NCBI GenBank assembly: GCA_024226255.1
Contig: JAAELU010000141.1
Span: 23,093-87,092 of the forward strand
Direction of reading: 5' to 3'
DNA: 64,000 bases
Origin: a bacterium
GTDB lineage: Bacteria > Actinomycetota > Acidimicrobiia > Spongiisociales > UBA5794
Under the pieces are notes generated by a model that was not told the DNA's origin, searched no databases, and saw only the letters and a list, made by a program, of their open reading frames with translations. How positions within the stretch are numbered: position 1 is the stretch's first letter; every line of letters begins with the position of its first letter. Positions 7,349 through 15,044 of this stretch are shown here, one piece after another. The position numbers and the translations under genes are program-made.

Positions 7349-7510
7349 TATCCGAGCGTTGTCTTTCACGCCGTGCGCGATTCCGTGTGCGGTTTCCTAT
7401 TGAGGTGTGTCGTTGTTTGAGCTCTTTGGGCGGCTCGCGCTCCAACTGCTGTTGTGACTGTGGTGGCGCCGGTTGCTGGCGCGGATAAGGTTCGATCCCA
7501 GTAGCGCCCA
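7349..7510 (+). repeat. Copy a of a roughly 160-bp dispersed repeat that ends in a 22-bp copy of the tRNA-Val 3' end (ggttcgatcccagtagcgccca, 7489-7510)
   Basis: The body is about 75% identical to 9688-9831, 12497-12586 and 53060-53190. The 3' terminus is identical to the T-loop/acceptor 3' strand of tRNA-Val(GAC) 140 bp upstream. Confidence 0.8.
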
Positions 7511-7537
7511 CGGAGGGGAGCCGATTGAGGTTGCCAT

Positions 7538-7684
7538 CTAGAGCGGAGCCTCGCAGCTGAGGTTGATCTCGCCGTTGATGCACTCGTCAATGTCATGGCC
7601 GCCACGGAGGGTGTCGACACCGGCTCCGCCGTTGAGGAAGTCGTCGCCGCGACCACCTTGAAGTTCATCGTCGCTGGGCGCGTT
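7538..7684 (-). pseudogene. RTX (hemolysin-type calcium-binding repeat) C-terminal gene fragment without a start codon
   Basis: Minus-strand frame reads NAPSDDELQGGRGDDFLNGGAGVDTLRGGHDIDECINGEINLSCEAPL* directly after an in-frame TAA. It contains nonapeptide RTX repeats and no ATG/GTG/TTG. Confidence 0.55.
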
Positions 7685-7767
7685 TTACCACCCCCCATAC
7701 ACCACAAGACCGGGTAGGCGCACACTCCAGCGAGCCGCGGCGTAGCATTTGAAGTGAGATCCGAGCA

Positions 7768-12439: not shown

Positions 12440-12676
12440 ACACCATTTGCTCTGAAAGGGCCTGACCTCCGCCGCGCCAGCCGCTTAGATGCCACGGGAT
12501 TCTGTAGGTGCGCGTTTCTGTGACCTGTGACGTCATGAGACGTATCGGTGGACGAGTTGGCGCGTCTCGGCCTGCGGCGCGGATGAGGTTCGATCCCGAT
12601 AGCGCCTACCGCCGGGAGCGTTGATCCGGTCGCGTACACGTTTTGTGTGCGACCCCTGTGGTTTCCTGTGATGGGC
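12440..12676 (+). repeat. Copy c of the tRNA-Val-3'-end-terminated repeat, followed by the start of a second, truncated body
   Basis: Body about 12497-12586; att-like ggttcgatcccgatagcgcctacc at 12587-12610. Positions 12611-12676 again align to the first 65 bp of the body (agcgttg...gtgtgcg...gtttcct). Confidence 0.7.
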
Positions 12677-14509
12677 CTATCCACCACCGGTGTAGTGCGG
12701 TAAGCCGTGGAGCATGAAGATCCCTCTCACCGCATCGAGCTCGTCCGGGTGGTCTCGGGCAACACTGTCCACGACGAGGCTCGCAAGAATGTTTGTCTCG
12801 TAATTGCCCTTGTTGAGCGCAAGTGCGGTCGAAAAGGCAGTTGCCAATGCACGGTTAGCCTCCCGTGGGTTTGACCATGGCCCATCCCACAGTGCCGTGT
12901 GGAATGCCTGTACCAGCGGCGTCCCGATGACGTAGTCACTGGTTCCGCAGTCCCCGTCGAAAATGGCAAGTGACGATGACTTGAGATCGAAACTCGACGC
13001 TGGGACACCGTTAGCGATCGGATCGCCGGCCCCAAAGAAGCTGTACCTCGCGTCGTGCAACACCAAGGCCATGAAGATCTCAGCGATAGCTTCTTGGTAT
13101 CCGCGGCTGGCACAGCTCGTCAGGTCGAATCCTCCGCCGAGCCCGAGCATGGTCGGGTTCATATAGCCAAAAACGTATCCGGCCGCGTAATGACCGTACT
13201 CATGAAGGATGACTTCAGGTATCACCTTGCCTGCCGCCACAAAGAACCGAGCGCCATCCGAATCGAACGCCCGAAAGCAGCCGTCGGGATCGCCGGGCGT
13301 CAGCAAGCACGCCGTCCCAAATCCGCCTTGGTCACTCAGAACATTTGGACCGACGGGGTCAGGCGTATGGATCTGGTCACCGGTCCACCCCGACGGGGTG
13401 ATCCAAATGTGATCGATCGCGTAGCGGCGTGCAAGCATTGTCCAGAAATAGACGGTCTGACGCTCGATATCGGTCCCCGCGAAATTGGGCCGGCTAGCGC
13501 AGCTGCTGTCGAAGTGGACTAGATCCGAGTCCGCGGGATCGCCGCCCACTTCGTGAACCGCGAAGTCTGGTGGGTGCTCTGCGCTGTTGAACTCGAGACG
13601 GTACTCACAGCTATCACCTCGAATGACGCTGATGGGGACCACTTCGATCGGGAATGAGCCATCAGCATCGCGATACATCATTTGGGCGCAAGCCAATCGG
13701 TCTGTCTCATTGGCTGCGGTGTAGCGCGAGGTCGGCATCACCTCGGTCCATTCTGCGAAGTTAACGCCCCCACTGCCCCCAATGTCGTAGTTGGCCCCCC
13801 AGATGTAGCGCATCGGCTCACAGAGTCCCAGGTATTCGGAGCCGGGAAGATCGAATTCATATGAATCCGAAGAGCCAACCTGCGTTGCCGGCACCGATAT
13901 CTCAGTGCCTGCGTCCCGATCCGCGTACAGGACAAGGACCTCCGTAATCGCGGCCCCCTGCTCAGCGCCCGCCGCGGTCATTGTCACGTCCACGCCCACT
14001 TTGTAGGTGTGCCCGGCTCCGACCACATACGCGGTCTCCGGCGCAATCAAGCCGTCTGCAAGCACAACCCGGGTCGGCCCGGCAACAAACTCTACGGCGG
14101 GTTCGGAGCCGCCGACAACCAGACCCTCGCAGGCAACCAATACCAAACTCGCCGCGGTAACCAGCACCAACCCAGCCACCCAGCCACGAGTCCAGATTCC
14201 CAAGTACTTCACACCGGGATCCTTCCCACGCTGAGCAGGGAGCGAGACTCCCTGCCTCCACCGTTCATTCTCACCGACCGCGGCTTCTACCCGACGTGCA
14301 GTTCGGGGGTCCACCTCGGTGCTCGCCCGTCGTCCATCAACTTGTCGAGTTCTTGCCCCTTTCGTCACAGGTTTGGCCCGGATGGAAGTACCAGTTCTCG
14401 TTGTTGACCCTTGTGTCGTCCCACTCTCGGCATTCCTCTTGGGTATAGTCGTCGCCGCAGTACCTGCCCGTGCTGTCACAGGCTCCAAGAGAGCTACTGC
14501 AGCTCGCAC
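12677..14509 (-). CDS. secreted or membrane-anchored zinc metalloprotease (HExxH)
   Basis: VILHEYGHYAAGYVFGY zinc-binding motif; TM/signal segment WVAGLVLVTAASLVLVAC. The N-terminal roughly 100 aa of the track ORF are low-complexity, and the true start may be GTG near 14212. Confidence 0.6.
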   Translation of the reverse strand: MRAAVALLEPVTARAGTAATTIPKRNAESGTTQGSTTRTGTSIRAKPVTKGARTRQVDGRRASTEVDPRTARRVEAAVGENERWRQGVSLPAQRGKDPGVKYLGIWTRGWVAGLVLVTAASLVLVACEGLVVGGSEPAVEFVAGPTRVVLADGLIAPETAYVVGAGHTYKVGVDVTMTAAGAEQGAAITEVLVLYADRDAGTEISVPATQVGSSDSYEFDLPGSEYLGLCEPMRYIWGANYDIGGSGGVNFAEWTEVMPTSRYTAANETDRLACAQMMYRDADGSFPIEVVPISVIRGDSCEYRLEFNSAEHPPDFAVHEVGGDPADSDLVHFDSSCASRPNFAGTDIERQTVYFWTMLARRYAIDHIWITPSGWTGDQIHTPDPVGPNVLSDQGGFGTACLLTPGDPDGCFRAFDSDGARFFVAAGKVIPEVILHEYGHYAAGYVFGYMNPTMLGLGGGFDLTSCASRGYQEAIAEIFMALVLHDARYSFFGAGDPIANGVPASSFDLKSSSLAIFDGDCGTSDYVIGTPLVQAFHTALWDGPWSNPREANRALATAFSTALALNKGNYETNILASLVVDSVARDHPDELDAVRGIFMLHGLPHYTGGG

Positions 14510-14588
14510 ATCCGACGCTGAAGGTCAACGAAACCGCCAGGGCAAATCCCCAGCCGAGGCGTGAGTTTCTTCTCTTTGTCGAGCTCAA
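14337..14588 (-). CDS. candidate small Cys-rich lipoprotein (83 aa)
   Basis: AGGGAG-N6-TTG start at 14588. Lipobox LAVSLTFSVGC. Eight Cys in CASCSSSLGACDSTGRYCGDDYTQEECREW...QTCDERG. GC3 about 75%. Confidence 0.4.
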   Translation of the reverse strand: MSSTKRRNSRLGWGFALAVSLTFSVGCASCSSSLGACDSTGRYCGDDYTQEECREWDDTRVNNENWYFHPGQTCDERGKNSTS

Positions 14589-15044
14589 CCTGAGCTCCCT
14601 TCTATTCGACCGCGGCTGATCTAGGACGACGGCCGCAGTTGTTGTAGGTCTCTCCTGAGAGGCTCCAGTCCGCGCTAAGTCCGCCCCTGGGGTGGCTGTG
14701 ACGGTGACGCTGCGATCTTCCATGTCTGCTGGCGAGATCGGTCGAAGGCACCACGCCGTAGCTACTGAACACGAACGAAGTCGCAAGTCCCAAGGCCGGT
14801 GAGAGTCTCAACATGATGTGCCCTTCCCACCGAGTCGTGCGAAGCGCGCTGTCGCTCATCTCAAAGCGTACAGAACGGTTCTAGGGGGGAGGGGCAATAG
14901 ATGATCACGCCTTCAGCAGCTCTCGGCCACTTCGCCGTTGTGCAAACGTCTGCGTCAAACTGCGGCCAAAGCGGGTGTTGCTCGACGTAGGTGCCCGAGC
15001 CCAATATGGGAGCGGACCAGGCTTTGCACACAGGGAGATGAAAC

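Follow-up and report, generated by a model that had tools for sequence, protein, structure and literature searches.

In a 64,000-nucleotide stretch from an uncultured member of the Acidimicrobiia (contig JAAELU010000141.1 of assembly GCA_024226255.1, positions 23,093 to 87,092; hereafter the window), the 3' end of a tRNA-Val(GAC) gene is followed by three direct repeats that partition the adjacent DNA into small gene-bearing units. The region is probably (at a probability of roughly 0.7) a tandem array of tRNA-targeted integrative islets, decayed or dependent on functions supplied in trans, and similar to cis-mobilizable elements (CIMEs). The evidence supports the repeats as attachment (att) modules derived from tRNA-Val, with a probably cognate type of integrase at the same site in relatives. 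The original prediction, made from the sequence alone, had described a tRNA-Val(GAC) gene followed by three att-like repeats. Gene and repeats were confirmed, and the repeats are att-like in a strict sense: each ends in the 3' part of tRNA-Val, a point that the prediction had missed. The proposed tandem accretion of small islets is supported by these tRNA-derived repeats, by the variable content of the locus and by integrases located at the same site in relatives.

The tRNA-Val(GAC) gene closes a tRNA-Gly(GCC)/Cys(GCA)/Val(GAC) cluster (7050-7348, identified with ARAGORN) located downstream of miaB...nrdR...dut. The dUTPase encoded in the window is at most 78% identical to that of any species representative, and its top matches are metagenome-assembled genomes (MAGs) of Acidimicrobiaceae/Acidimicrobiia; two proteins of the window are 100% identical to the NCBI MAG proteins GY720_03545 and GY720_03495. 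The array lies directly 3' of the tRNA gene, which ends at 7348, with the first module starting at 7349. The anchor gene and the three modules of this array are as follows.

7274-7348, plus strand: tRNA-Val(GAC), final gene of the Gly-Cys-Val cluster (ARAGORN; Rfam tRNA model, 69 bits)
7349-7511, plus strand: module a, with a trailer carrying a hairpin (7370-7393), an arm of about 90 nt and core a (7489-7511, 23/23 identical to the tRNA)
9680-9854, plus strand: module b, with a left core of 7-8 nt (CGCCCAC), trailer, arm and core b (9832-9854, 20/23)
12459-12680, plus strand: module c, with trailer and arm both shortened, core c (12587-12609, 20/23) and a second trailer of about 65 nt with a hairpin (12628-12654)

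A repeat search combined with nhmmer delimited the three direct copies, of about 170 bases each, at 7340-7513 (a), 9680-9854 (b) and 12459-12609 (c); the repeat search alone placed them at about 7340-7521, 9680-9864 and 12576-12619. The nhmmer E values for a, b and c (8e-53, 9e-45 and 5e-31) describe only the mutual similarity of the copies, as the profile was trained on copies a, b, c and d of the window themselves. An independent test of significance was provided by the 23-nt core GGTTCGATCCCAGTAGCGCCCAC in which each copy terminates. With up to 3 mismatches allowed, this core has seven matches in the window and none in 100 shuffles. The seven are the two tRNA-Val genes of the window and the positions 7489 (a), 9832 (b), 12587 (c), 44467 (e) and 53191 (d), the last two belonging to a second array described below. 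From the T-loop onward, the core matches the tRNA-Val 3' end exactly or nearly so (23/23 positions in a and e, 20/23 in b, c and d), and in the tRNA-Val(GAC) gene itself it forms the final 23 nt preceding the CCA (7324-7346). The units are bounded by direct repeats of this 3' part of the tRNA, with the exception of the right side of unit 3.

The anatomy of the modules is conserved well beyond the core. In an alignment of the window copies with metagenome copies, the order is a tRNA-Val 3' remnant, a trailer, an arm, GGATAAGG plus core, and then the start of the trailer again. The left remnant is the real tRNA in module a, 7-8 nt in module b, 34 nt in the metagenome contig L082 and 46 nt in L083. 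The trailer, which has a terminator-like hairpin, is similar to the native trailer of tRNA-Val in two relatives (L001 and L002). The arm carries two direct TTTGGGCGG-type motifs (GGGCGG-type) that correspond to the core end CGCCCA in inverse form. The restarted trailer extends for about 20 nt after a and d and for about 65 nt, including its hairpin, after c; in L083 it resumes past the second core, at the contig end. In module a there is zero cargo between the tRNA and core a, which makes it an "empty" att pair. In all copies compared (those of the window, L082, L083 and L007, a MAG of a distant member of the Acidimicrobiia), identity to the tRNA starts invariably at the GG before TTCGA, that is, at the T-loop. 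This fixed start points to crossover at a set position and not to random duplication.

Comparison with relatives shows that the site is variable in content. The upstream synteny of miaB...nrdR...dut...tRNA is kept in relatives, and the next shared genes downstream encode an AMP-binding enzyme (29739 in the window) and NifU (31635), followed by a zincin and tRNA-Val(CAC). In L009, the gap between tRNA-Val(GAC) and the AMP-binding/NifU genes is about 0.2 kb; L007 has 1.4 kb, L006 2.2 kb, and both L011 and L031 5 kb, against 22 kb in the window. This range identifies the site after tRNA-Val(GAC) as a hotspot of variable content, and it bears out the comparative check suggested by the original prediction, namely variable cargo between conserved flanks; the relatives in question are distant ones (dut at most 78% identical). 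The contig of an 88%-identical relative stops 80 nt past dut. Several metagenome contigs from relatives (L085, L088, L089 and L091) end within about 70-90 nt of dut or of the tRNA cluster, a pattern that assembly breaks at a site rich in repeats or variable between strains could explain, although most contigs of the collection are short anyway.

Integrases provide further evidence at this locus. A PF00589 tyrosine integrase gene, convergent with tRNA-Val(GAC) and hence on the opposite strand, lies 36-100 nt downstream of it in L001, L002 and L012, whose dut genes are 78%, 72% and 65% identical to that of the window, the first two being its closest relatives. This position is the one occupied in the window by module a. 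In three other relatives (L073, L024 and L043), a related integrase abuts the tRNA-Gly that follows dut. No attR of these integrase-bearing elements was found within the fetched contigs, and an nhmmer search for the module in 80 dut-anchored loci of relatives matched only tRNA 3' ends. A "second core" in L036, considered as an att repeat, was rejected as a genuine second tRNA-Val gene.

The module family is portable and also present in other metagenomes. An exact-pattern scan of Joint Genome Institute (JGI) metagenomes with one pattern recovered three contigs with the module, two of them overlapping. L082 and L083 share the module architecture of the window at 72-84% identity, next to unrelated left-flank genes, and both have an extra upstream arm with CTGAC repeats. 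In L082, one gene for a 589-aa secreted protein stands between one core and a second "partial arm plus core", the canonical attL...attR layout. An "empty" att pair that is independent of and non-homologous to that of the window occurs in L007 (10673-11140): the tRNA-Val gene is followed by 86 unrelated nt, a 72-nt near-perfect repeat (core, CCA and terminator hairpin) and then a gene with a signal peptide. The core-to-core spacing is 158 nt in L007 and 165 nt in the window. The module was absent from IMG/VR; the same 23-mer, on the other hand, is found in that database at both ends of a provirus of about 40 kb within tRNA-Val(CAC) (L096/L103). In a high-GC contig (L097), the 23-mer lies about 120 nt from an integrase gene whose product is 33.5% identical to that of L073.

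A further feature was observed to the left of the module in L082 (690-754) and L083 (1160-1223), where a conserved arm of about 65 nt (GACACAGATCTGACACAGAC...GCGAAAC.GTG.GAAAC) precedes the 34-46 nt tRNA-Val fragment. Its placement suggests a second integrase specificity on the same tRNA, which may involve a crossover in the anticodon or variable loop. In the window, only a CTGACCTCTGAC remnant was seen, at 9662.

The same repeat family marks both tRNA-Val genes of the window, as copies e and d follow tRNA-Val(CAC), and a second array begins after the end of that gene at 42569.

42496-42569, plus strand: tRNA-Val(CAC), anchor of the second array, with the same repeat family (ARAGORN)
44447-44489, plus strand: copy e, the last 20 nt or so of the arm plus the core at 44467 (23/23 to the tRNA-Val(CAC) 3' end)
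53070-53213, plus strand: copy d, full arm plus the core at 53191 (20/23), then a trailer-like start

Copy e closes a 1.9 kb islet encoding an alpha/beta hydrolase and an HxlR regulator. Copy d closes an 8.7 kb block encoding OmdA, a fusion of TIR and solute-binding (SBP) domains, a hydrolase, a DUF3179 protein, a CCG/Fe-S protein and a DsrE-like protein. The original prediction had limited the array to 7349-14600; the variable region is larger than this, and the family recurs at these two more distant copies.

These features can be accommodated by a simple model. The islets would have been inserted by site-specific recombination, with a tyrosine integrase crossing over in or near the T-loop. 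Every insertion would bring a fresh tRNA 3' end and terminator and displace the older copy downstream, and the junctions would consequently carry att-type modules composed of a core, a terminator-like trailer, a putative recombinase-binding arm and a core. The integrase may later have been lost, or the elements may never have carried one, and the remaining att-flanked cargo would be mobile only with an integrase supplied in trans. Islets at the second tRNA-Val gene would be marked by the same module family. Any pair of coexisting direct cores could recombine, deleting or inserting single units, and recombination between differing core pairs would leave the pair next to the tRNA "empty" and place cargo beyond it. 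The order of these events, the role of the arm as a binding site and any present-day mobility are parts of the model that we infer, as is, within the exact history, the joining of trailer and arm into one 140-nt unit that then spread.

Several observations weigh against the islet array. The canonical model has cargo between attL and the arm; module a is empty with its cargo after it, and extra recombination steps would be needed to reach this state. Almost nothing remains of the left cores in b, c and d, and the left flanks of these copies are not significantly similar to tRNA-Val (z about 0). Unit 3, which had been predicted to be delimited by repeats, is open on the right, with no further core between 12.6 and 42 kb. 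Since the relatives are distant, part of the 22 kb could be rearranged backbone rather than insertion. At the strain level, three contigs of a sister assembly (GCA_024449835.1, 99-100% identical) are colinear with the window, with module b 100% identical in L094, and no presence/absence difference was seen among them. In line with the expectation that the usual mobility genes are lacking, none was found among the approximately 58 larger open reading frames (ORFs) of the 64 kb that were scanned with Pfam, and tblastn with seven integrases (E up to 50) gave nothing credible in the window. No integrase, excisionase or remnant was recovered by the window scans. Composition, finally, barely sets the cargo (GC 0.57-0.65; third-position GC, GC3, 0.62-0.77) apart from the backbone (GC3 0.67-0.78); it is a weak test for foreign origin, and the per-unit check of GC and codon usage that had been suggested lends only weak support.

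This similarity in composition would also be expected if the repeats were local copies of the tRNA-Val 3' flank, made by segmental duplication or by unequal homologous recombination, the genes between them being vertically inherited and lineage-specific, and the lack of mobility genes in the window and the colinear sister assembly point the same way. Such an origin is nevertheless unlikely, because members of the family are also found 35-46 kb away, at the other tRNA-Val locus, and beside unrelated genes in other metagenome contigs, the identity boundary is fixed at the T-loop in independent lineages, and integrases are present at this site in relatives. The copies are moreover 70-84% diverged, and hence not recent local duplicates. 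There is a similarly slim chance that the module is a non-autonomous mini-element, resembling a miniature inverted-repeat transposable element, that homes to tRNA-Val 3'-like sequences, so that the partition would be incidental and the cargo not acquired as units. The module sequence (X) is always bracketed by core-like sequence, its ends form an imperfect inverted repeat (TATCCG(A)GCG / CGCGGATA), the family is multi-copy (five in the window) and present in other metagenomes, and in L007 a 72-nt duplication flanks an independent insertion of 158 nt. A "target duplication" of 23-72 nt, however, suits no transposase and does suit the identity segments of integrase att sites. On the left the copies have degenerated, whereas those on the right have been retained; the gene in L082 is bracketed by two cores in a canonical attL...arm-attR arrangement, and integrases occupy the same site in relatives.

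A quite different account would make the module of about 170 nt the gene for a structured, tRNA-like small RNA with an acceptor/T-loop-like 3' end, perhaps co-transcribed with a tRNA or processed as one is, with ordinary neighbours between the copies. All copies are oriented as the tRNA, and in the 3' part a short hairpin (GGCGC...GCGCC) could enclose the T-loop sequence, but this account is very improbable. The T-stem is not formed and the copies vary by indels of tens of nucleotides. Rfam at the gathering threshold identified true tRNAs only in the whole window, and at E up to 10 it found nothing tRNA-like in module a or the L083 module. RNAalifold on six copies gave a weak structure with a positive, and hence penalising, covariation term (+2.5 kcal/mol). 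By both methods, the repeats fall outside structured or tRNA-like RNA families; a search for conserved RNA structure with RNAalifold on both strands, with four and then six copies, ended with none supported. The arm and core were also considered as a decayed tRNA-Val pseudogene, and this was rejected on the basis of zero covariance-model matches and the flanks to the left of b, c and d, which lack significant tRNA-Val similarity.

The islet array at tRNA-Val(GAC) has clear counterparts among known systems. Insertion of islets at tRNA sites is a familiar route by which bacteria gain accessory genes, and the feature described here adds a further case, from a phylum that has been little studied, to a well-known type of genome feature, with no new mechanism. 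Its sole unusual element is the composite double-core module, together with its recurrence as an empty att pair of about 160 bp in two lineages. Tandem accretion at the 3' end of a target gene and CIMEs without an integrase are documented, as in the tandems of ICEs (integrative and conjugative elements) and CIMEs of Streptococcus thermophilus (ICESt1/ICESt3-type), in which att sites are kept and the genes for integration and transfer are lacking (PMC5704250). Like the units of the window, CIMEs have att sites without integration or transfer genes, form tandems at the 3' end of the target with att repeats between them and can be moved only by the integrase of a related element. The window units differ in being smaller (1.9-2.8 kb, 1-4 ORFs), in occurring in Acidimicrobiia and in having composite double-core modules with an internal terminator at their junctions, and a helper element is not visible. 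In the tycheposon-seeded islands of Prochlorococcus, successive integrations push older elements inward, leaving partial tRNA copies between them, and degenerate remnants and extra partial tRNAs are scattered within (10.1101/2020.12.28.424599). The location next to tRNA genes and the separation of elements by partial tRNA copies are shared with the window, which in contrast lacks the hallmark tycheposon genes (integrase plus replication module) and belongs to another phylum; membership in that class is not claimed. Integration of temperate phages or ICEs into the T-loop or 3' end of tRNA-Val is a further counterpart. The L096/L103 provirus is flanked by an identical 23-mer, and in L097 this sequence is adjacent to a related tyrosine integrase, whereas PHROGs and Pfam scans recovered no phage, conjugation or integrase genes in the window units.

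The stacking of short, mostly 1-3-gene units at a fixed chromosomal point, each with a recombination site, recalls integron cassette arrays. This resemblance is an analogy only: the window has no intI, attI or attC, its repeats are direct and tRNA-derived rather than imperfect palindromes, no attC-like dyad was found in them, and the genes lie in both orientations. A stronger version, in which the module would be a portable landing pad where a trans-acting tyrosine integrase inserts, excises and shuffles 1-3-gene cassettes at both tRNA-Val loci, is doubtful. If true, it would describe a tRNA-based platform functionally analogous to the integron and rich in secreted and surface proteins in uncultured Acidimicrobiia, and the recurring "empty" att pairs of about 160 bp (window and L007) would be a selected minimal site. 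An active platform of this kind would be a natural example of integrase-driven cassette exchange outside integrons. Independently of this possibility, the dut-tRNA(Gly-Cys-Val) locus is documented here as an integration hotspot in Acidimicrobiia, and the att core and module are usable for finding islands and their cargo in MAGs of uncultured members of the class. The array would also illustrate how very small units for secreted proteins can accumulate without an integrase of their own.

Modules a, b and c divide 7349-12680 into units that carry an RTX protein and orphan secreted proteins or lipoproteins. The following ORFs lie in and immediately right of these units.

7541-7684, minus strand: RTX repeat fragment of 48 codons, bounded by two stops and lacking a start (translation, BLASTP, inverted repeat I1)
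7768-9639, plus strand: unit 1 cargo, secreted protein of 623 aa with RTX calcium-binding repeats and Ig-like domains (Pfam, NCBIfam)
9979-10149, plus strand: small ORF with a signal-peptide-like start, not called as a gene in the 99-100% identical GCA_024449835.1
10207-10434, plus strand: 75-aa ORF of unit 2, called as a gene in the sister assembly
10629-11183, minus strand: unit 2 cargo, orphan 205-aa lipoprotein with lipobox LIVTSC
11539-12396, minus strand: unit 2 cargo, orphan protein of 285 aa that starts with a signal peptide
12677-14212, minus strand: 511-aa lipoprotein with HEYGH, no repeat on its right, identical to P0001 (alignment)
14337-14786, minus strand: Cys-rich ORF that may have a lipobox; contig L093, 98.8% identical, has no gene call here

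The secreted functions that had been predicted for this cargo are only partly documented. The assignment of unit 1 to an RTX calcium-binding protein is confirmed, with six PF00353 stretches (E = 4e-38), a Big_7 domain and partial matches to NCBIfam RTX-type models. The predicted start-less RTX fragment on the opposite strand is likewise present, and is 44-60% identical to the repeats of the unit 1 RTX protein by BLASTP. Beyond RTX, the scan of cargo functions with PHROGs, NCBIfam and Pfam was negative, and it returned zero family matches for the unit 2 lipoprotein, the 285-aa protein and the 75-aa ORF. The prediction of secreted or lipoprotein genes in unit 2 agrees with the lipobox and the signal peptide of the two larger proteins, while the small ORF at 9979-10149, one of its putative peptides, is doubtful as a gene.

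For unit 3, a HExxH metalloprotease and a Cys-rich mini-lipoprotein had been proposed. The HEYGH motif, E374 and H386 of the 511-aa protein are invariant across an alignment of six homologues, and on this motif a role as a metalloprotease is plausible but unproven. The protein is rare cargo, a point in favour of the islet reading: only five homologues were found in a database of 5.8 billion clusters, one of them near two integrase genes, and there was zero match in Pfam, NCBIfam, PHROG or PDB sequences. The AlphaFold2 model of the protein is poor (pLDDT 58), and Foldseek gave only Ig-like matches with it (E > 0.04). The Cys-rich ORF is doubtful as a gene; its GC content is lower at first (0.42) than at second (0.58) codon positions, a non-coding-like pattern.

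To the right of the array, a 509-aa ORFan (15652-17181) retrieved only itself from the 5.8-billion-cluster database; the sister assembly calls a 361-aa product there. It is followed at 17259-29293 by a xanthine-dehydrogenase-like molybdoenzyme cluster (FAD and molybdenum cofactor (MoCo) subunits, XdhC, YqeC), a histidine kinase, a long PFK and two hydrolases. These genes sit between the array and the conserved AMP-binding gene and are absent there in all fetched relatives.

A few minor observations concern the remainder of the window. TIR-domain proteins are encoded at 45264-47330 and 60001-62328, one fused to a solute-binding domain and the other to DUF6777. A SLATT_3/SLATT_1 effector with two transmembrane segments (62403-63413) is adjacent to a protein with a nucleotide cyclase domain (63394-63984). 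Both sets may have roles in defence or signalling. Finally, a 14-nt tandem repeat, CCAGTTGTCAGTTA, is present in 5.5 copies (92% match) at 36340-36416, in the intergenic region upstream of a GPAT-like gene, and a related 2-copy array lies close to it at 36441-36471, possibly an operator-like or iteron-like site.

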